A stretch of 64,000 nt of DNA from a virus. Position numbers and translations under genes: made by a program. Location: the IMG/VR virus record IMGVR_UViG_3300010935_000101, positions 29,068 through 93,067 of that record, one strand, 5' to 3'. How positions within the stretch are numbered: the stretch's first letter is position 1; each line of letters begins with the position of its first letter. This document shows, in pieces, positions 8,201-54,864 of the stretch. Below the pieces are notes generated by a model. It was not told the origin of the DNA and did no database searches. It saw only the letters and a program-made list of their open reading frames with translations.

Positions 8201-8668
8201 ATGACAACTGAACAGATTAGCTCAATTATTACACAATTTGACATGGGGCAAAAATACTTTGTATGGCAAATGTCTGAATGCAATTCTGATATGGATGAGG
8301 GAGACAGGCTTAACCAATTCTATGAGAATCAACTTTTACCTCATCACATCATCTTTGAGGATGACGAAAAGGTATTAGCACTAATGGAGCACACTGGAGA
8401 CAACTGGGATGATTGTGAATCTGAAATTGACACCAAATACAATGTATACACAGATTCTGAAGCAGATGAATCAGTAGATAACCGACTCGAGGAATACTTG
8501 GATGACAACTTATTGTATGATATGGATAGTGCAATTGCACAATACTTTGACAGGGACTCTTGGAAATCGGATAACGCTAATGACAGAGGATTTTGGCTTA
8601 GTATTTCCGATAGTGAAGAATATGAAGAAATAATTAATAAAACAACTTATTATATCTATAAGATTTAA
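8201..8668 (+). CDS. Highly acidic hypothetical protein
   Basis: About 39 D/E vs 10 K/R in 155 aa by manual count. Confidence 0.75.
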   Translation: MTTEQISSIITQFDMGQKYFVWQMSECNSDMDEGDRLNQFYENQLLPHHIIFEDDEKVLALMEHTGDNWDDCESEIDTKYNVYTDSEADESVDNRLEEYLDDNLLYDMDSAIAQYFDRDSWKSDNANDRGFWLSISDSEEYEEIINKTTYYIYKI

Positions 8669-8740
8669 TTAGGTATAATTTCAATCTTCCACCAAACAAG
8701 TGGCTAAACTGAATCATTTAGTTTGTTTTAAATAATAGTT

Positions 8741-8749
8741 TGCTATAAT
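8741..8749 (+). promoter_or_regulatory. Extended -10 promoter TGCTATAAT
   Basis: Perfect TGnTATAAT upstream of endonuclease gene. Confidence 0.65.
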
Positions 8750-8751
8750 GT

Positions 8752-8831
8752 TTTTAGTACTTTAATCAAGCAGGTCTTCGTCCAGTTGCACCTGTTTAAT
8801 TAAGGTACTAAAAGTACAGAAGCAACTGGAC
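8752..8831 (+). ncRNA. Predicted H-type pseudoknot leader
   Basis: Stem 8752-8775/8790-8813; loop GTCCAGTTGC (8780-8789) complementary to GCAACTGGAC (8822-8831). Confidence 0.55.
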
Positions 8832-8874
8832 ATTCTTCTCAACTTCCTTAAATTTATTAGTCTGAAAGTGTAGT

Positions 8875-9576
8875 ATGCCAAAGAAAGTAACTAATATAGA
8901 TTTTGTTAAAAGGGCTATAAAAGTCCATAATAACACTTATTGTTATGAACAAGTGAATTATGTACATTCCCATAAAAAAGTTATAATTGTATGCCCAGGA
9001 CATGGAGAATTTTTACAAAGTCCTAACAATCACTTAAAAGGTAGAGGATGTCCTATTTGTGCAGAAAGTAAAGTACCTCAAAAATCTACCAAAGAAGAAT
9101 TTACTAAAAAGGCTTCTTTAGTGCATTCCAATAAGTATTCTTATGATAAAGTGAGTTATGACGGAAACAAAACTAAAGTGATAATTACATGCCCAACTTG
9201 TGGAGATTTTAAACAAAGGCCCGATCATCATTTAATTGGTAAAGGGTGCCCAAGTTGTGCTAAGTATGGATTTAATCCAAGTAAACCCGCAGTACTCTAT
9301 TATTTATCAATAAATAATGGACAAGCTTATAAGATAGGAATTACAAATAATACAGTAAAAAGAAGATTTGATAATGAGTCAGCTGATATTAGGATAATAA
9401 AACAATGGAAGTACCTTTTAGGAAAGCATGCTTATGAAAAAGAGCAAGAACTTTTGAAAAAGTACAGTGAGTTTAGGTATAGTGGGGACCCTCTACTAGA
9501 AAATGGCAATACAGAGTTATTTAATGAAGATGTGTTGCATTTAAATATTTTTATAAAGGATATAAATTATGACTAG
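8875..9576 (+). mobile_element. Free-standing homing endonuclease (DUF723-like Zn repeats + GIY-YIG-like domain)
   Basis: Two repeats IxCPxxGxFxQxPxxHLxGxGCPxC; LYYL...YKIGIT; terminal GNTELF. Confidence 0.8.
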
Positions 9577-9826
9577 AAAAGAGTTTATCAAGGCATTAGC
9601 CGAAAAGCAGGAAATAAGTCCAGCCAAAGCTGAGTATGTACTAGATGATATAAAAAGCATCTTAAAAACTGAGCTACTAGCAGGTAACAAAGTTGTGTTA
9701 GGATCTGATTTCGGTACTTTTAAACCAACAAACAGATCTGGTGTAGTCCCAACTACTGGAGCCAAATATAACAGCAAATCTGTCAAATTCGCAGTCAGTA
9801 AACCATTTAAGTGTGAGCTGAAGTAA
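9569..9826 (+). CDS. HU/IHF-like DNA-binding protein
   Basis: MTRKEFIKALAEK...KVVL..FGTF...VKFAVSKPFK. Confidence 0.8.
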   Translation: MTRKEFIKALAEKQEISPAKAEYVLDDIKSILKTELLAGNKVVLGSDFGTFKPTNRSGVVPTTGAKYNSKSVKFAVSKPFKCELK

Positions 9827-12051: not shown

Positions 12052-12542
12052 CTTTTGACAGATGGATATCAACACACACAAAGAAAAAAAATAAGATATT
12101 ATTAAAACTAGTAGGTAAAACTGATGTAGAGATAGTTGAGTATTTTAAGTGGGATAACATGGTTCTAACAGAACCTAAATACTGTGAATTATACGCAACT
12201 AAAAGTAAGTGCCACATAGTAGACAGCTTAAACTGTCTACTATGTGGATGTCCTTTCTTCAAAGTAACACCAGAAGAAGATCTCAGTACAACAGGCATGC
12301 TAGTCATGAGTAGTTGCTCAATAAACTCCAAATATGTGGACATCTTCAATTTCACTAATGATGATGGACGTGTATGTAGTCAATGTGATTGTACTAATTG
12401 CTCAATTAACCATACCGATAGCTTTGCTCTCAACTCATTAAGAGCAGATAACCCTGATTTCTGTAATGATACGTCCAGCTTTTTGGAACATTTAAGGGCA
12501 TATCAATTTTCAGAAATATTAGGAAAGTACAAATTATTTTGA
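12048..12542 (+). CDS. Cysteine-rich small domain (zf-like) protein
   Basis: YCELY..KSKCH...LNCLLCGCPFF...CDCTNCSINH. Confidence 0.6.
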   Translation: MTFDRWISTHTKKKNKILLKLVGKTDVEIVEYFKWDNMVLTEPKYCELYATKSKCHIVDSLNCLLCGCPFFKVTPEEDLSTTGMLVMSSCSINSKYVDIFNFTNDDGRVCSQCDCTNCSINHTDSFALNSLRADNPDFCNDTSSFLEHLRAYQFSEILGKYKLF

Positions 12543-12607
12543 ATAATTACACAATGACATTCGCAGGCTTCGTGCCTACTGATGAACTTGAACAACAAGG
12601 AACTTTA

Positions 12608-13261
12608 ATGAGCACAAAAAAACTATATGATATAGTCTATATAGATCCACCTTGGCAATTTAATGCCAGGAACAACACTGGAACATCATTTGGTGGAGGT
12701 GCAATGGCACATTACCCAACAATGCCAATGAAGGAAATTTCTAACTTGGATTTTACCAAAATTATGAAACCTAATGGACTTATGTACTGTTGGGTAACGT
12801 TAGCTAAATTAGACCAGTGCATAACAGCAATGGCTAAGAAGAACTTAGTCTATGTAACTACCGGATTTGTTTGGATTAAAACTAACAAGAAGGGTACTTT
12901 AGCACCCACATCAAACAAGTTGTCAGTTTTTGACAAGAATGAATATAGAAATGTATTTTACGGAGTAGGCAACTATACAGCTTCCAATGCCGAGATTTGT
13001 TTAATATTCCGTAAAGGTAGAATGGTTAAGCACAAAACCAAGGTTTCCCAAGTAATAATTTCACCACTTGATGTGCATAGTAAAAAACCACAAGAAGCTA
13101 GAGATTTACTAAACATTATGTATCCTTCACCAGAATTTGACAAGATAGAGATATTCGCTAGGACAGAAGCAACTGGATTTGACATTGTGGGTAACCAGTC
13201 TAACAACATAGATATAAGAGACTTTTTAGCATCTTATACTGAGGAGAACTTTAATGACTAA
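12608..13261 (+). CDS. MT-A70-family N6-adenine methyltransferase
   Basis: YDIVYIDPPW, HYPTM, HSKKP, KIEIFAR, GNQ; start at ATG 12608 by AAGGA RBS. Confidence 0.85.
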   Translation: MSTKKLYDIVYIDPPWQFNARNNTGTSFGGGAMAHYPTMPMKEISNLDFTKIMKPNGLMYCWVTLAKLDQCITAMAKKNLVYVTTGFVWIKTNKKGTLAPTSNKLSVFDKNEYRNVFYGVGNYTASNAEICLIFRKGRMVKHKTKVSQVIISPLDVHSKKPQEARDLLNIMYPSPEFDKIEIFARTEATGFDIVGNQSNNIDIRDFLASYTEENFND

Positions 13262-26300: not shown

Positions 26301-29294
26301 AACTGATGCTACTTTTTCTGAGTTTTTGTACTCATCCATCAGCACTGCTTTGTTATCTACTACATCGCCAATCTTTGTCTTATTTTCGCCTGCAACTAGT
26401 TGGATTGATTCTGAACCATCTGTTTCAACTTGGAATGCAAGTGCACCTTTTATTCCCTTTGGTTTTGTGGTTTCATTTAGTATTTTTTGTCTTCTTTCTA
26501 GTTCTTTATTAGCCTCTAGTGCAGCATTTCCAGCAGTTTCTAGCTCTGCTTCATACGATTTTCTATCAGTTTCACTAATACTTTTTAACCCTTTAGCAGT
26601 CTTCAGTAAGTTCTTAATAGTTACCAACATTGCGCCATTTTCTTTTGCCAGTGTACCGATAAGTACATCAGTCTGGTATGCTACTTTATTTTTGGTTGCT
26701 CGTAACTTTCTTAGTCTACTAGCAGCAAATCCAGTCAATCCTTTTAGCGTTACTGCAGTTGTACCCTTGGCCTCTATCACAGCAGCTGCTTTAGCTTTTG
26801 GGTTCAACATCTTCTTAGTTAATTCATTCTCATATACTGTCAATCCTGGTCTATTTGGGTCTGCATGCAGATTATTACCTGATTCGCTAACTATGAATCC
26901 CAGATCAGCAAACTCACTGTTTACTGCAGTTGAATCTTTGTTTTCTAGGTAATTCTTTATTGTATTTTTTAACTTTGTTATTGATTCTGTTGTATCCCCA
27001 ATATCTTCTGAACCTCTAATAGATTTAACTGCAGCTTCAGTAGCATCAATTGTGTCCTGTATTTCTTTTATTTGAGATACTATTGTTTCTTGAATACCTG
27101 TTTTTTCATTAACTGCTTCACCCAAGTCTTTTAGCTTCTCAGATGACACGTCTGTATTCTGGTTTATTGCTTCAACTAGTTTTCTAGAGCTCTCATACAC
27201 AGTCTCATCAACCATATCTTTAAGGTTGAAATCTACTTTTTCATCTTTATCTAGTTTTGCTATTGTTTTGTACACATTATCAATTGCTGTTGCATCGCCA
27301 GATTTAGTTGCTTTATCTAGTGCTTCTTTAATTATCACACCATATGTTGTCTTCTTACTAGCACTTGCATCCAAGTTGTCAACCATTTTACCGTGTATAG
27401 CTTCAACCTGTGACACAACATTCTCAGTATCACCTGCTATTATTGTATCAATTGTTTTAACTTTTAGTGGTGTTACATATTCTCTATCTTCTCTCAGTCT
27501 TTTTTGTACTGGGGTTTCTGTTGCTCTCTCAACAGCTGTCTTACCAGCATTGAATACTTTTGGGGCTGCGTTTATAACCACCCCTGGAGTTGAACCAGCA
27601 ACTGATTGGCCTATACCTATTAACAGTCCTTGATAACCAGCGTGGCGTATAGCTTTTTGAGATGCCTCATCCAATAGACCCCATACTTTTTTACCATCAT
27701 ATTTAGTAGTGCCAACCCTCTCAATTAACATTCCAAGAACCTCTTGAAAAGATTCAGTACTGAATTCTTCAGTACCTGCAGCAGCAAGTTTAGTAGAACT
27801 TTTAACTATTGCTCCAATGGTCTTAGCAACGATACTCTCTCCGGCCTTTATTGGAAGGGCTTTAAACATGATATCAATGACCTTCTTATTAACTCCACCC
27901 AAACCTTTACCAACACCAAAAGACAGTTTAGCTGCAACAAAATCTGCACCTAATTCTACTGCTGTACCACCAGCTACTGCTAAGGTAGTTTTTAAATCAG
28001 CCGCTTCCCCTGTCACTTTTAATCTTTCATCCAGATGTTGATTAGTAGCACCTGCTAACATTGCCATAGGCTGTTTACCTAATGCGTACATGTACGATAA
28101 TGAATCTGCTATAGCTTGAGGTATAGCTTCTTTGTGGTTATATACTTCCTTGAGTGTGTTAGCTACTTTTGTATAGATTGGTTCATTACTACCCCATATT
28201 CCGTCCATGCTATTATTAAAGTCCTCTGTAATTTTTTGGTATTTAACATCATTAGCTCCGATCAGTGTATTGAATGCTTGTTTTGATGTCTTACCATCTT
28301 TTTCATAACCCCAGTAGTGTCTGACTTGTCCATCACTATCTACTTGGAATCCTAATTTACTTAAATTTGGTAAATCTTCTTTGGTTATATCTCCACCAAA
28401 AGCTCTTGCAGTTTTTTGTGCTAAATTAGCTCCAGCATCAAAGAAACCATCTGCTACATCAGCAGCAGTAGCTCCTATTGTTGCAGCAACACTCTTAGCA
28501 GCATTTTCCCAGTATGGAGCATTAGCTTCTTGTTCTTGTATGTATTTAGCCAATGCTTCTTTAGTTGGTGTATTATTATCACTTCTGGAATTTTTTACTT
28601 TACCTGCAAAGGCATTTTGCAATGGATCTATTGTTGCTTGTACTGTTACTTCTTCACCATACAAGTTTCCTAATGCTGCTCCACCTCTTGAACCGATGTC
28701 TCCAAGCTTTTGACTAATTATTGGCACGTTTAAGGGTACTTGCTGTGTATTGCCAAATTCATCTTTGTACTTCCCAGTTAGATTAGTTTGTTCCACACCT
28801 CGAATTAGTGGAGCAACCCATCTATCTTCTCCAGGAGTTCTTGCTAAGTCAGCAAGTTTTTGTATTTGTTGTTGATTAGCTACATCTAACATATCTTGTT
28901 CTGTGACTGTGTCTACAGGCTTATTAAGTATCATTCCAACTTGATTTCGTTGCATTTGCATGGAATACGTTGATTTACCAATCTCTCCAGCAGCTCTACG
29001 CTCTTTACTAATTCCTTGCATGTCATAAGGATTAGTGCCATGCTGTGTTTCAACAGCATCATACCTATTTCCATATGGATCTACTTCTCTAGAGTAGCCT
29101 AGGTTTTTAGTAATTGCTGTATCAGCATCGTATAGACCTTGTAGTGTATCTTTAGAGTATTTGGAAGTGTCTCCTAGTTTAGCAACTTTTTCTGCTGTTC
29201 TTTGATTTAGTTTATCTATTTTCTCTTGGAGGGTATCTTTTTGAGCTGTTGGACTGTATCCTGCAATCAGTGTTGCGAATTCTTCATTAGTCAT
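20391..29294 (-). CDS. Virion-encapsidated RNA polymerase (N4 gp50-like), 2967 aa, with C-terminal SLOG domain
   Basis: TVSGR (T/DxxGR), EIDAITSG (motif A), RSIAKSPVMVYIYG (motif B), NVYDAV (motif C). Confidence 0.92.
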   Translation of the reverse strand: MTNEEFATLIAGYSPTAQKDTLQEKIDKLNQRTAEKVAKLGDTSKYSKDTLQGLYDADTAITKNLGYSREVDPYGNRYDAVETQHGTNPYDMQGISKERRAAGEIGKSTYSMQMQRNQVGMILNKPVDTVTEQDMLDVANQQQIQKLADLARTPGEDRWVAPLIRGVEQTNLTGKYKDEFGNTQQVPLNVPIISQKLGDIGSRGGAALGNLYGEEVTVQATIDPLQNAFAGKVKNSRSDNNTPTKEALAKYIQEQEANAPYWENAAKSVAATIGATAADVADGFFDAGANLAQKTARAFGGDITKEDLPNLSKLGFQVDSDGQVRHYWGYEKDGKTSKQAFNTLIGANDVKYQKITEDFNNSMDGIWGSNEPIYTKVANTLKEVYNHKEAIPQAIADSLSYMYALGKQPMAMLAGATNQHLDERLKVTGEAADLKTTLAVAGGTAVELGADFVAAKLSFGVGKGLGGVNKKVIDIMFKALPIKAGESIVAKTIGAIVKSSTKLAAAGTEEFSTESFQEVLGMLIERVGTTKYDGKKVWGLLDEASQKAIRHAGYQGLLIGIGQSVAGSTPGVVINAAPKVFNAGKTAVERATETPVQKRLREDREYVTPLKVKTIDTIIAGDTENVVSQVEAIHGKMVDNLDASASKKTTYGVIIKEALDKATKSGDATAIDNVYKTIAKLDKDEKVDFNLKDMVDETVYESSRKLVEAINQNTDVSSEKLKDLGEAVNEKTGIQETIVSQIKEIQDTIDATEAAVKSIRGSEDIGDTTESITKLKNTIKNYLENKDSTAVNSEFADLGFIVSESGNNLHADPNRPGLTVYENELTKKMLNPKAKAAAVIEAKGTTAVTLKGLTGFAASRLRKLRATKNKVAYQTDVLIGTLAKENGAMLVTIKNLLKTAKGLKSISETDRKSYEAELETAGNAALEANKELERRQKILNETTKPKGIKGALAFQVETDGSESIQLVAGENKTKIGDVVDNKAVLMDEYKNSEKVASVTEKTEVKFKVIKNVKKMTVKELEEYKNALTEAAINANGKERKRLRSIYVTVTNRETTMLNDQKYKDTTYVKDVERIKKEKREAEIARSEKLKANQKSADVGVPVKPTKTEVKETQDLSNLTKKQQEFVTRYAAGELKLTPGQTKRYNELIEKAKQPKKVAKPKGSLESTTKQQRMKEASEVKMGQSEDEPKQEVKKIMNEKGFDSDYKNMSEEDIAELTRLEEERLIQEPVEATIDDGVLPEQVESDNGPLSEVRAKIEFVNKELSALIDGVKDMNVKKHVKEYYAKKLGDLQEDRTRLGKMLDRLETALDKRMNRKYDTEAKSILAGLVAQIDKLVKQMIKQINRLDKMLKKTNKQYRKVNAELQTILDAINAIEAEFTSEPVKTTIGTITKIDEELYGTPVVDVNGERVIAKRQLKKDGKLEAPGTAMNRALELVKNDKIAELRDELKEIEAGKTSLSAKLIGRLLINYPANSPIHRLVKRANDSVFGQLTGNPFAKADRLLEVLPKGFKEFFITDAESKVELLENFKTMADYLNNTKIGTIIVGNNTLSKNIDNNGLVIKHINKYVPIKKVVVKGDKLQDADKQAYIVESADGDKVHVKTSGRNPVKSIKQVSEFTGVLEQQETSAPVDIIELLGTTKDGKLQIDEQTKNILKFFTAKMLADSQAMIGKILSFDESEMAQYLGITDPDEQIRVKQEAAQGYVNSASIRKDIGGEVYQALGIRLNETTPEFTEESFKSTLGVLVQVIATENGSMDGKPLEAGGKNQNLIKTNWENIGVERGALTKAINKLQYLNENRNRPLPSLKAPKDNANRTVMNTKNPMDAKSVEFLNNTEKTAYKISPRLQRWLEMDEKEALKAMGYVDVDTAGLHVSEIDAQRARNDKLVREWEILKTFAKATKGKEFYLDWGQTVSGRYTILNDIQYQESKLHREFVVAEGSTESVDVNDADSRQMLEASIMQGLDMDPDKLSAETATANFNDVFKVTDKGIEIEPQLDKDGDPNKTQVAIKQAYEALRDGKIDAEAMAEVFADSEGHHGISSIELLVDWDQAIKDGTKIETHANLEIDAITSGMILTLLQIGSDLALRLAEKGGIYTEARKPQLEAYVKKWLGDTVEFTPGALIEAGKKHAAEIEEKMKGLSGEKLAELRKELESDDTFKDLYSTIGVAMIGEVQAYKTKLEGLDKPSELEIQQLAMLNQIGELNLKNIRSIAKSPVMVYIYGASISSIKKKLTYSLGVNTLVKAIKTASKKLKAGENADKELEFVKTFIPKEKYVNEFGAKVETPSERWEQLLALDIQPAIDTIDSVIKETFGTAIETAFDSRLGFVNKNRDAAKAIEMLVFEAYQIRLADEVNKFLDAKYGKGRHKGETYRLSKEDMQSINAKLTAEGHGHNIVWDETEGRVNQSLNKTGDKGGIHSTKVTVGNTSVGGQIKQFKPAVNTGAAPTISIHAIDGRMMLDVLNRELGGKYAGGNVYDAVVLSLDKAMLTDTADSYNTNMIETGFNRSIVADQLGMLENMLATMDEKQKKRMFANIGLRPEGELREDYTNETNRIGLGIGKMLDSLETAEEVNKERLANSAKGYYSGHLFQMGSGIAKIDASETRAKEFPAIETIKRLLQNKLAADRKVTKKEFANKGIKLNANTDYVFNLSDIANKKTQVESKANIAQISEKSDGKLKVDNKLWDLLSANDTVEIIGEYSESKKKDSQSWHYNNITNKLANSDAKIVTKIDLTKFGRELVNGVWVKSDIKSISNDTKETAVESSNRPIFDSLPSYQKGQNTMTYAGIGSRQTSKETLILMTKVAAWLAKKGYKLQTGKTFGNKEEGADKAFSDGTTNKELFGPEMATEKTKAIAKELHPAPQYLREGGLKLMARNTNQVFGKNLDTPVDFVLFNSEETKNPMRPKGGTGQAVEMARVKGIPTINMMDKDWRKQLEAVINKSKETAKQEEVIIAPSEVFNKNVNKKIECKD

Positions 29295-29297
29295 TTA

Positions 29298-29344
29298 TAA
29301 GCCTTCTTTTGGTATTTTTCTTTATTTTACCGCAAGAAGGCTTA
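29298..29344 (-). promoter_or_regulatory. 11-bp inverted repeat covering the vRNAP ribosome-binding site
   Basis: TAAGCCTTCTT (29298-29308) / AAGAAGGCTTA (29334-29344). Confidence 0.55.
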
Positions 29345-29352
29345 ATTATAAG

Positions 29353-52390: not shown

Positions 52391-53785
52391 TCATCTCTTT
52401 TCCATAAATAATTTTTCAGCAAATTCTGCCATTTTTCCTCTTACAACTTTCTTTAATTCAATTGCAAATATGCTCACACTTGTACCAAGTGACTGGTCTC
52501 TAGCCTCACCCATTAGTACAGCAAGGCCATTATTGTACTTACTTGTATACTTATTATCTATCTGTGCTTGACTACCAGTAATTATTATCTTACAGTCTTT
52601 ACCAACTCTTGTCAAGGTCTTTTGGGAAGTTGCTTGACTAGCATTTTGCCACTCATCCAGAATAACTATAGTGTTGTGGAATGTTTTACCCCTAAGTCCT
52701 GTAGTAATTCTAGACTGCATATTGCATTTTTCTTTTAGGTCTAGTATCTCTTCCGCAACTCTAGCTTCGAACTCTTGTTGTTTCTCACTTGGTTTTTGTT
52801 TGATTTTTTGACGAACTAGGAAATCTAGTGTATCTTCCATGGGTCCTAGATACATAGCCAATTTTTCATCATTGCCCGCAAGGTACCCAATATCTTCACC
52901 AGGCTCCTCATCATTCTGTGGAGTTCTTATATACATAATTGCTTTATATTTATCTCTATTAGTTTTTAGTAATTTAATAGCATTGCTGAGTGCTACTATA
53001 TTTTTACCACTACCAGCCTGTCCTTCCATAATCACCAAGTCTACAAACGGATCTAGTATTGCTCGACTGGCCAATAATTGTTCACTATTTACAGGAGGGC
53101 AGTCCTGTCGTCTAATCGCTTTTTCAGTTTCCTTGCCAAGTACTTTTATAAACCCATTAGTCACAGTTGCTAGTTTAACTTGTTCTGTGTCCAATTGGAT
53201 AAACTTATAACTATAATTCTCTGGTTTGTAGTCTTTATCAACTTTAAAAATATCCTCATCGTGTAAAGTCTTGAACACATCTGGGTCTGTAACTACAAAT
53301 TCCTTTGTAAATTTGAATTCAGTATCATCAACCAACTTCAAGTCTATTGCAGTTAACCCAATAGCCAGCCCACGAATTCTAGCGAGCACATCGTTAGTCA
53401 TGAATGTTGTGTTACCATACAACTCCTGCATTCTTTGGGCCACTTGGATTATTTTTTGATCATTTGCTCCTGAATCATTAGGGTCAATATTGACATATTC
53501 ATCCAATGTTACAATTTCTAATGTCACATTTTCACCCTTGTGGTACATTGTTGTGATTGTGATACCATCAATATTAGTGGTATTTACCAAGTTGCACATT
53601 GACAATATCCTGCCCATCTGACGAGCTTGGTATGCTAACTCACCGTAGCCTGATTTCTTATTATCTACTTCTTTTATAGTAGTCTCTGGAAGCACTATAA
53701 TATTTTCTTTTCCTAATGTGAATAAATTTGTAGAATCTAATAGCACTATATTAGAATCTAACACTAATCTTGGTTTAGTTTTCAT
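52391..53785 (-). CDS. phoH: PIN-PhoH protein
   Basis: PIN LDSN...ETTIKEVD; GQAGSGK; LRGKT...ILDEWQN...TRVG...TGS..QID. Confidence 0.9.
   Translation of the reverse strand: MKTKPRLVLDSNIVLLDSTNLFTLGKENIIVLPETTIKEVDNKKSGYGELAYQARQMGRILSMCNLVNTTNIDGITITTMYHKGENVTLEIVTLDEYVNIDPNDSGANDQKIIQVAQRMQELYGNTTFMTNDVLARIRGLAIGLTAIDLKLVDDTEFKFTKEFVVTDPDVFKTLHDEDIFKVDKDYKPENYSYKFIQLDTEQVKLATVTNGFIKVLGKETEKAIRRQDCPPVNSEQLLASRAILDPFVDLVIMEGQAGSGKNIVALSNAIKLLKTNRDKYKAIMYIRTPQNDEEPGEDIGYLAGNDEKLAMYLGPMEDTLDFLVRQKIKQKPSEKQQEFEARVAEEILDLKEKCNMQSRITTGLRGKTFHNTIVILDEWQNASQATSQKTLTRVGKDCKIIITGSQAQIDNKYTSKYNNGLAVLMGEARDQSLGTSVSIFAIELKKVVRGKMAEFAEKLFMEKR
53660..53677 (-). repeat. 18-bp direct repeat, copy 1 (ATAAAAGAAGTAGATAAT on minus strand)
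   Basis: Identical to 54748-54765. Confidence 0.9.
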
Positions 53786-54684
53786 TTTAATCCTTCTGGG
53801 AGCACATTTATAATAAACATTTCTGAATTACCTGCATACAAAATAGAGGGGCCATCATATTTATTTATTATATTGCTCTTTATTATTCTTTGTTCATGTT
53901 TCCATGCCGAGTACCCATCAGGATACACCTTTTGTGCAAGCACTGTATAATTAACTTTATTTCCTGCGAATCTTTTTTCTATGCTCCTATTAGTAATTCC
54001 TATTTTATATATATCATAATCAGGAAAATAAACATAATATAGTATAGTCTCTTTTAATGGGTTAAACTGCCAAGCTTTTAATTTTTCAGCACAACTAGGA
54101 CAATTTGATCCTGACAAATGATCTCTAGGAATTTGCCAAAATGGTCCGTGTTCTGCACAAATTATCAGTATTGGTTCTTTCATCTTTGTATATACAGCAT
54201 CACAATAATTATATTTATTTCCATGTACTAATAAAGCCCTTTTAGTAAATTCTTCAGTATTCAGTGTATTCTTTAGTCCTCTAGTAATATCAGAACACCT
54301 AGGACATCCGTGACCACTTAAGTGTCCTGCTGGGGATTGTTGAAAGGCCCCATGTTCCGGGCAAGTAATTGTCAATGGAGTATGTCCATTTTTGTACTCG
54401 GCATTTGAATAAGTGTACTTCATATTATGTACATCGTTAGCTTGTTCTATGAATGTTTTAATTGATTTTCTAGTTTTGGAATAAGCAGCACTTTTACCAC
54501 ACTCCTTACATCCTTTCCCTGCCACATGTTCACTAGGCTTTTGCCAAAATACTCCATGAACCTTACACATTATCTTAACTTTAGTTGAAGCATTCACATA
54601 ATCCACCTCATTGTAGGTATACTTATTTTTATGTTCATCAATTGCTTTTTTTATAAATTCTTCTTTAGTTTGTTTTCTTGGCAT
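53782..54684 (-). mobile_element. Free-standing homing endonuclease (three DUF723-like repeats + GIY-YIG-like domain)
   Basis: IxCxxHGxFxQxPxxHxxGxxCxxC x3; LYYV...YKIGITN. Confidence 0.82.
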
Positions 54685-54738
54685 CTACCACCCTTTTTAC
54701 TTTATTTCATAGTTAGTATACTTTAATTATTATTAATT

Positions 54739-54864
54739 TTACCTTAAATTATCTACTTCTTTTATCACTGTTTCGGCAAGTACGATTACTCTATCTTTGC
54801 CTAATGTCAACATATTTTGCGCATCCAATAGGATTATATTACTATCTATTACTAATCTTTTCAT
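54739..54864 (-). pseudogene. Truncated 41-aa copy of the PhoH N-terminus
   Basis: MKRLVIDSNIILLDAQNMLTLGKDRVIVLAETVIKEVDNLR vs MKTKPRLVLDSNIVLLDSTNLFTLGKENIIVLPETTIKEVDNKK; ATGA-coupled to upstream gene. Confidence 0.85.
54748..54765 (-). repeat. 18-bp direct repeat, copy 2
   Basis: Identical to 53660-53677. Confidence 0.9.

Follow-up and report, generated by a model that had tools for sequence, protein, structure and literature searches.

A candidate family of cis-acting leader RNAs in mobile endonuclease cassettes of uncultured phages

The stretch of DNA analysed here, hereafter the window, covers 64,000 nucleotides (positions 29,068 to 93,067) of the IMG/VR virus record IMGVR_UViG_3300010935_000101, a record of 96.8 kb with 36% G+C, and it carries a putative homing endonuclease gene that is preceded by a strongly structured leader. 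We propose, with a probability that we put at about one half, that this leader (8741-8874) belongs to a small family of cis-acting leader RNAs, not yet catalogued, that is housed in mobile cassettes of uncultured phages. It would act in cis on the messenger RNA (mRNA), setting the translation of the endonuclease and possibly the lifetime of the transcript. Its elements are a promoter-like box, a long hairpin (S1) that begins immediately behind this box, a second helix (S2) in which part of the S1 loop pairs with a downstream segment, and a conserved tail leading to a start codon that has no Shine-Dalgarno (SD) sequence. The coordinates of all features are collected in Table 1.

Results

Five homologous leaders were found in four viral contigs. 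In addition to the copy of the window (WIN), they comprise L144, on a 107.7-kb contig before a related endonuclease gene; L308 (L308:955-1645, minus strand), which lies 3 kb from L144 on the same contig; and L161 and L193, on two further contigs before related T5orf172 endonucleases. The sequence-only reading of this DNA had seen in the leader a cis-regulatory RNA that travels with the endonuclease cassette, a view that it made dependent on covarying homologues. Homologous leaders with compensated stems and loop-tail pairing exist in three other viral contigs, and the window leader lies entirely within an insertion absent from the syntenic relatives L016 and L136, both of which strengthen that view. 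The tie to nucleases is not exclusive: L308 precedes the gene of a 180-aa HTH_36/RepO-like winged helix-turn-helix (wHTH) protein, with S1, S2 (GTCCAGT/ACTGGAC), the conserved tail and an SD-less ATG all in place.

The five leaders share one layout. A TATAAT-like hexamer lies 0-4 nt upstream of the S1 base in every one of them, and a transcription start about 7 nt downstream of this hexamer is predicted to fall 3-7 nt inside the 5' arm of S1. S1 itself is always a long hairpin rich in A and U, with 13-27 pairs (the shortest, 13 bp, in L193), the arms of which are largely unalignable between members yet complementary within each; its z-scores range from -3.8 to -8.0 in the four members tested, and in an ungapped comparison of WIN with L144, both bases differ in 10 of the 15 pairs of the lower stem. 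The stems fall out of register in the MAFFT alignment, and the pairings are therefore given here per sequence and not as a formal count of covarying pairs.

S2 is a perfect Watson-Crick helix in all five leaders (10, 8, 8, 16 and 7 nt) and is built from four different sequences: the loop segment reads GTCCAGTTGC in WIN, GTCACGTT in L144, TTCCAACG in L161, a 16-mer in L193 and GTCCAGT in L308, the last being partly the same as that of WIN, while L144, L161 and L193 differ. Against shuffled sequences, the pairing reaches p values of 1.5e-4 (WIN), 4.4e-3 (L144), 6.5e-3 (L161) and <5e-5 (L193). The 3' strand of S2 ends 0-1 nt upstream of the conserved tail in all members, and with its position fixed in this way, simple arithmetic puts the chance of finding its complement in the loop at approximately 1e-3 to 4e-9 per member. 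Since the S2 sequences differ and are all perfectly paired, the loop-tail helix has comparative support at the level of sequence.

The tail that follows is conserved in sequence as well as in length (35-44 nt). It consists of TTCTTYTC, CYTAAATTT(T)ATTA and GAAAG, then the SD-less ATG; its core between TTCTTYTC and GAAAG is CYTAAATTTATTA. The folding energies of the sense and antisense strands are -25.9/-20.7, -20.2/-19.7, -24.0/-24.0 and -21.0/-15.9 kcal/mol in the four members tested, the sense strand thus folding equally well or better in 4/4, with G-U pairs in three; sense-strand folding and G-U pairs mildly favour an element that works as RNA over one that works as DNA.

In the window, the main elements were found as they had been read from the letters: a perfect TGCTATAAT box directly before the stem; the 24-pair stem, made of 21 Watson-Crick pairs, two G-U pairs (8761-8804 and 8770-8795) and one mismatch (C8767/A8798); and a 14-nt loop, the last ten bases of which, GTCCAGTTGC, are the exact reverse complement of GCAACTGGAC. 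The transcription start predicted from the promoter-like box would lie at about 8756, within the 5' arm of S1. On one point the earlier description was too generous, for the pseudoknot elements do not fill the leader: a 43-nt unstructured tail, which includes CCTTAAATTTATTA, stands between them and the ATG at 8875, S1 ending 61 nt and S2 43 nt from the start codon. That this ATG has no clear SD was borne out, its predicted SD pairing of -0.4 kcal/mol, against a genome median of -5.6, placing it in the weakest 10% of 97 open reading frames (ORFs).

The S1 hairpin alone folds with -25.9 kcal/mol (z = -8.0 against shuffles), and the entire leader with z = -3.85. When 24,172 overlapping 80-nt windows of the 96.8-kb genome were folded on both strands, the S1 region ranked approximately 12th among the distinct ones; it is also the most stable hairpin adjoining any of the 138 TATAAT sites of this genome, which show no general enrichment of hairpins after them. 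The genome contains 12 perfect inverted repeats of 10 nt whose arms are 3-60 nt apart, where about 10 are expected. The 10-nt S2 pairing is by itself unremarkable; the improbable part is the use of this particular loop, the p value of WIN given above being the fraction of shuffles in which a 10-nt complement of the 14-nt loop occurs within the 61-nt downstream leader.

Do the two helices coexist as an H-type pseudoknot, or do they alternate? Loops 1, 2 and 3 measure 4, 0 and 8 nt in WIN, 5, 0 and 18 in L144, 9, 11 and 12 in L161, and about 0, 16 and 6 in L193. By our geometric estimate, the 8-nt loop 3 of WIN would be too short for a 24-bp stem and could span 19-20 bp, which is what is left if the transcript begins at the predicted site or if at least four basal A-U pairs fray, the cost of this fraying being about 4 kcal/mol versus a gain of about 18. 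On the same geometric grounds, both helices together should be sterically unproblematic in L144 and L161, and in L193 S1 would be compatible only with a shortened S2, the full 16-bp S2 excluding it. A Dirks-Pierce-style estimate gives the WIN pseudoknot -37 to -42 kcal/mol versus -19 to -24 for S1 alone.

On the other hand, S2 of the window can lengthen to 14 pairs (8780-8795/8816-8831) by taking in ACCTGT of the S1 3' arm, and the extended helix, which overlaps this arm, yields an alternative hairpin of -21.3 kcal/mol versus -24 for S1. In partition functions limited to nested structures, L144 remains in S1 and L193 in S2, L161 flips from S1 in the read-through RNA to S2 in the RNA from the predicted start, and WIN makes the same flip only if transcription starts at 8758 or later. 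A consistent S1/S2 switch dependent on the 5' end was accordingly rejected, as it is clear in L161 only and borderline in the window. Of the H-type pseudoknot proposed from the letters, the pairing of the loop with the downstream segment is backed by the homologues; beyond that, S1 and S2 may form together or in alternation, loop 3 being short in WIN and the full helices incompatible in L193.

Other functions of the leader were sought and rejected. In the window, a pairing of 8822-8835 that would sequester the start region is weak (-11 kcal/mol), barely surpassing chance at the 5th percentile of randomly chosen windows. An intrinsic terminator does not fit, S1 being AU-rich and followed by AAAAGUAC, and a consensus scan makes no call; the loop enclosed by S2 is 32 nt long in the window and 32-44 nt in the four members measured, and S2 is followed by AUUCUUCUC. 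A leader peptide or upstream ORF was discarded because no plus-strand ORF of at least 20 aa (ATG, GTG or TTG) is present in the leader; by inspection of the sequences, reading frames are not kept between members. At gathering thresholds, no Rfam family, be it of riboswitches, ribozymes, HEARO/omega RNAs or phage leaders, matches the 64-kb window, and a permissive search of the leaders returned only far sub-threshold hairpin-type (miRNA precursor) and other chance matches. A tRNA/tmRNA scan gave nothing.

The five members define a lower bound for the family, the search having been made outside the contigs of the closest protein homologues (P0002-P0120). They were reached by a wider search based on an alignment of the endonuclease clade. 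BLASTN and nhmmer comparisons of the leader with the first 96 loci and with the INPHARED phages gave nothing significant; an exact-pattern scan for the S2 pair in viral contigs (L097) and a scan for the stem-loop core in reference genomes (L132-L134) gave only chance matches in G+C-rich coding DNA. Scanning metagenomes with the endonuclease returned no relative above 52% identity (the best full-length one being L098, 48%) and no leader homologue, and of the 57 and 23 stretches retrieved when viral contigs were scanned twice for tail patterns, the known G003 copy alone adjoined an endonuclease. Twelve more distant endonuclease relatives have mostly unstructured leaders. The single-sequence covariance model R1 found no match in 53 loci; it retrieved L144 at E = 3e-4. 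The tail profile R2 scores its four source sequences at E = 6e-11 to 7e-8 and detected L308, which is not one of them, at E = 0.011; over 100 loci it revealed no additional member.

Genomic context

The cassette that holds the leader is an insertion. In the relative L016, the sequences that flank it in the window are contiguous (window 8201-8713 corresponds to L016 3001-3497 and 9548-9790 to L016 3499-3741 by BLASTN), and L136 offers a second empty site, where the HU gene comes straight after the upstream gene and no endonuclease intervenes. As the upstream gene and HU are contiguous in relatives, 8714-9547 is an insertion of 834 bp. The final endonuclease codons extend into the native sequence, and the last 8 nt of the ORF overlap the HU start. 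By its domains (Pfam DUF4379, 5.5e-10; T5orf172, 7.7e-5) and this insertion polymorphism, the ORF fits the T5orf172 homing endonucleases, and an architecture of zinc-finger repeats with a T5orf172 nuclease has been described for phage homing endonucleases (PMC10448857). The ORF contains an internal 86-nt repeat; its homologues number 635, and the phage records 1241.

Table 1. Features of the endonuclease cassette and its surroundings in the window
Feature	Positions	Strand	Basis
Native phage signals outside the cassette: TAGGTATAAT (8670-8679) and small hairpin CCAC..GTGG (8689-8703)	8670-8703	+	kept in L016 directly upstream of HU
Inserted cassette, 834 bp: promoter-like box, structured leader, most of the endonuclease ORF	8714-9547	+	
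Putative sigma-70-like cassette promoter: TTGTTT, 16-nt spacer, TGCTATAAT	8722-8749	+	sequence
Extended -10, TGCTATAAT	8741-8749	+	sequence
S1 5' arm	8752-8775	+	fold and inverted repeat
Loop 1, CTTC (4 nt)	8776-8779	+	
S2 5' strand, GTCCAGTTGC, in the S1 loop, abutting the S1 3' arm (loop 2 of 0 nt)	8780-8789	+	
S1 3' arm, includes UUAAGG	8790-8813	+	fold and inverted repeat
Loop 3, 8 nt	8814-8821	+	
S2 3' strand, GCAACTGGAC, ending 0-1 nt before the conserved tail	8822-8831	+	
Conserved tail, unstructured and rich in pyrimidines and A+U, ATTCTTCTCAAC..CCTTAAATTTATTAG..GAAAG, reaching the SD-less ATG	8832-8874	+	alignment of four tails and five leaders
T5orf172 (GIY-YIG-like) endonuclease with two treble-clef zinc-finger repeats	8875-9576	+	Pfam
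HU-like DNA-binding protein gene, native, displaced downstream by the cassette	9569-9826	+	Pfam Bac_DNA_binding, 7e-13; synteny with L016 and L136

Sibling cassettes carry a small gene where the window has its leader. Six of them (two in the related phage G001, plus L145, L148, L152 and L098) have a gene for a 59-aa protein resembling ribbon-helix-helix (RHH) proteins between a TGYTATAAT box and the endonuclease; the order in these RHH cassettes (L141:1290-1505 and L140:1290-1508 included) is the TGYTATAAT box, a short hairpin that holds an SD, the RHH-like gene and the T5orf172 endonuclease, the ATG of which overlaps the stop codon of the small gene. The pair of RHH protein and T5orf172 endonuclease may form a selfish module of repressor plus nuclease. 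In a tree of the nuclease domains the RHH-type genes cluster (93/92 support), and the RNA-leader type is not monophyletic, L193 standing among the RHH-type genes, so that the regulatory front end of the cassettes appears to be exchangeable.

The genome holds a second endonuclease of this kind, which has an ordinary leader with an SD (gene 53782-54684, minus strand; region 53782-54864). This T5orf172 protein of 300 aa, about 40% identical to the first, has its gene flanked by those of a ClpP-like protease and a PIN+PhoH protein. Immediately upstream of the endonuclease gene, a 41-aa ORF (54739-54864) shares 67% identity with residues 6-44 of the PhoH-like protein, which is encoded downstream and has a complete PIN domain of its own; it thus appears that the cassette either left behind or brought along a second copy of its target gene's 5' end.

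Elsewhere in the window, in the leader of a gene for a 2967-aa virion-polymerase-like protein (29285-29352, minus strand), a large-loop hairpin of 11 bp (-19.2 kcal/mol, z = -6.5) starts right behind a TATAAT, and its 3' arm contains the SD AAGAAGG, immediately ahead of the ATG. A promoter in a hairpin that sequesters the ribosome-binding site (RBS) is a classic layout, and promoter-plus-hairpin control is therefore at home in this phage.

Three further observations concern the sequences around and beyond the leader. The TAGGTATAAT/TAGATATAAT signal with its CCAC..GTGG hairpin lies upstream of HU both in the window (8670-8703) and in L016 (3445-3480), TTAGGTATAAT also lies upstream of the L144 leader, and this type of signal may be a promoter consensus of the phage lineage. 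A 15-nt exact match to leader positions 8816-8830, ACAGAAGCAACTGGA, occurs at 13163-13177 within an MT-A70 methyltransferase gene (12539-13261); it is probably due to chance (BLAST E = 0.03 within the genome), and this copy could pair with the leader loop. In a related viral contig, about 890 bp (L026:4279-5168) split the class II ribonucleotide reductase gene at the point that corresponds to residues 106/107 of the protein encoded in the window; this interruption may represent an intron, an intein or the insertion of an endonuclease.

Discussion

The model we propose combines the two helices and the tail in the control of a single transcript. S1 would form first, at the extreme 5' end of the RNA, and its position against the promoter would follow the logic of promoter-in-hairpin control in T4 endonuclease genes; promoters embedded in leader hairpins are a well-established means of controlling endonuclease genes (PMC2988022; PMC2677866). 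S2 would then tie the upstream edge of the initiation tract to the S1 loop, either by stacking on S1 as a pseudoknot or, with S1 shortened, by forming an alternative hairpin, and in both cases it would fix the border of an unstructured, SD-less initiation tract. With the predicted start lying in the base of S1, a read-through RNA would have a longer S1 than the RNA of the cassette promoter, which would shift the balance between S1 and S2. The base-paired 5' end would be a likely component of the mechanism.

Several observations weigh against this model. Both helices leave the start codon uncovered, S2 ending 35-44 nt upstream of it, which is why our commitment is limited to a cis-acting leader that sets expression. 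The predicted accessibility of the start region hardly alters between the folds, except in L161, and the predicted equilibrium between S1 and S2 differs among members. Inverted repeats adjacent to a promoter could equally act on DNA. The family has just five members, two of them from one genome; L143, the closest relative of the endonuclease, is without the leader, and the L308 copy sits before a wHTH gene and not a nuclease gene. Finally, L161 and L193 came from a screen that required a hairpin with a complement to its loop, a screen that also gave four AT-rich, non-homologous matches, so that for these two the homology of the tail is the independent criterion.

The alternative that survives best, which we nevertheless judge improbable, is a portable operator that controls translation in the manner of T4 gene 32. 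In this reading, a static 5' pseudoknot and the UUAAA tail would recruit a trans-acting protein, the phage single-stranded-DNA-binding protein (SSB) or the zinc-finger endonuclease; the pseudoknot would nucleate its cooperative binding, and its spread along the tail would occlude the SD-less start. Such a trans factor is called for by the fact that the fold itself does not mask the start. The layout also matches, with a pseudoknot far upstream of the AUG (S2 end at about -44) and then an unstructured A+U-rich UUAA(A) tract to the ribosome site (PMC3014915), the tail motif CYTAAATTT(T)ATTA is more strongly conserved than the stems, and S2 abuts S1 in WIN and L144 as in coaxially stacked pseudoknots. 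The binding protein is only a candidate, however, and the regulated genes encode an endonuclease or a wHTH protein and not SSB, so that there would be no autogenous control in the gene 32 sense; moreover, the loop lengths vary widely, L193 is unable to stack its full S2 on S1, and each tail has one UUAAA only. If the operator were real, these SD-less mobile genes would be translated only once other targets, such as DNA in replication or DNA with breaks, have titrated the protein away, and a gene 32-like circuit carried by selfish cassettes would be an RNA alternative to the RHH repressor gene.

Next in order, and also doubtful, comes an element that acts at the level of DNA: nested inverted repeats over the start, serving as an operator or cruciform, would be bound by a repressor (the endonuclease or another protein) that silences the cassette promoter. 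The repeats do begin 0-4 nt after the -10 box in all members, and the sibling cassettes of the same clade have their RHH repressor-type gene at exactly this position, which suggests that transcriptional control is usual in this endonuclease clade; autorepression by I-TevI provides a precedent (PMC2988022), and the sense and antisense fold energies are equal in 2/4 of the leaders tested. As DNA, however, the G-U pairs of S1 would be A-C mismatches (two in WIN; in the whole minimum-free-energy fold, four in L161 and two in L193). The interleaving of S1 and S2, in which 32-38 nt separate the two strands of S2, characterises RNA pseudoknots rather than operators, the single-stranded tail conserved up to the ATG points to mRNA, and no RHH homologue was found in this genome. 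An I-TevI-like operator resembling the homing site was rejected, the best match between leader and homing site (14-15/20) lying at the shuffle median.

With much the same low likelihood, the leader might govern only the fate of the mRNA and have no direct role in translation, its paired 5' end blocking 5'-end-dependent decay or its quasi-continuous helix of 20-30 bp serving RNase III. Phage precedents for such elements are the RNase III sites of T7 and lambda and the 5' stabilisers. The predicted start inside S1 would indeed give a paired 5' end, and S1 has the length of an RNase III substrate in four members (20-27 bp), but it has just 13 bp in L193, and the conserved S2, the conserved tail and the fixed distance to the ATG would be left unexplained.

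It is very unlikely that the leader is a non-functional relic, for example of the decayed RHH gene of the sibling cassettes, with palindromes that are accidental. Those cassettes place the RHH gene between promoter and endonuclease, overlapping the endonuclease start, and a MAFFT alignment hinted at a similarity between the leader and this gene. Descent from a decayed RHH gene was rejected, as BLAST and nhmmer gave no significant similarity between them, and five leaders retain both helices despite the turnover of their sequences. The ribozyme and the nuclease-associated RNA that the sequence-only reading had entertained, here taken as a self-cleaving ribozyme and a guide-type RNA, are scarcely credible: only physical linkage to a nuclease gene speaks for them, no Rfam family, all catalogued self-cleaving ribozymes included, matches any leader copy at gathering or permissive thresholds, the T5orf172/GIY-YIG enzymes are guided as proteins by their zinc-finger modules (PMC10448857), and the same leader stands before a wHTH gene.

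Why should a cis-acting leader of this kind matter? Homing endonucleases need low and well-timed levels, for which leader hairpins are the classic means of T4. The module described here would link a conserved initiation tract that lacks an SD to a loop-tail helix and to a hairpin set against the promoter, while leaving the ribosome site unmasked; it moves with its cassette between unrelated phage genomes, can serve a non-nuclease gene as well, and fills the slot that a small repressor-type gene holds in sibling cassettes. It thereby offers a compact and testable system for SD-independent control of initiation, for the choice between a pseudoknot and alternative hairpins, and for the regulation that selfish genes carry with them, and it supports the view that the leaders of phage nuclease genes are a rich and largely uncatalogued source of structured RNAs.

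Comparison with known systems

Among T5orf172 enzymes with CapR/DUF723/DUF4379 zinc-finger modules (Barth et al. 2023, PMC10448857), the same domain architecture and the same presence/absence polymorphism at a gene boundary are found; that paper makes no mention of a hairpin, an untranslated region or secondary structure. As in our leaders, a hairpin stands in 15/16 endonuclease leaders in the 'fractured genes' of marine metagenomes (Dassa et al. 2009, PMC2677866); it frequently accompanies a promoter motif and recurs in host genes that are unrelated to one another. The enzymes concerned are of Vsr-like and GIY-YIG families, however, the motif is of the T4 late type, and no loop-tail pairing was reported.

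The leaders of the T-even group (I-TevI, I-TevII, I-TevIII, segB and Aeh1 mobE; PMC2988022) resemble ours in that free-standing endonuclease genes have a stable hairpin in their 5' leaders, with a promoter at or in its 5' side and structures that differ between read-through and promoter-initiated transcripts (both predicted in our case), and with the presumed role of limiting or timing nuclease synthesis. They differ in three respects: S1 contains neither the ribosome site nor the start codon, which is 61 nt away and lacks an SD; a second, covarying helix joins the loop to a downstream segment; and the promoter is sigma-70-like and not of the T4 late or middle type. Closer in one respect is the seg43(25) hairpin of Aeromonas phage 25 (PMC2988022), which is very stable, lies upstream of an endonuclease gene and leaves the RBS unsequestered; unlike S1, it ends immediately before the RBS, and neither a pseudoknot helix nor a conserved tail is on record for it.

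The gene 32 operator of T4, T2 and RB69 (PMC3014915) shares with our leaders a 5' pseudoknot tens of nucleotides upstream of the AUG and an unstructured A+U-rich UUAA(A) tract that runs into the initiation region. S1 is much longer here (13-27 bp), the genes are those of endonucleases or a wHTH protein and not of SSB, and the binding protein would be only a candidate; the likeness, drawn by analogy, is one of layout and not of homology. In conclusion, leader hairpins of endonuclease genes are already known, and what is new in the leaders presented here is a loop-tail helix supported by covariation, the absence of RBS masking, a conserved SD-less tract and mobility with the cassette.

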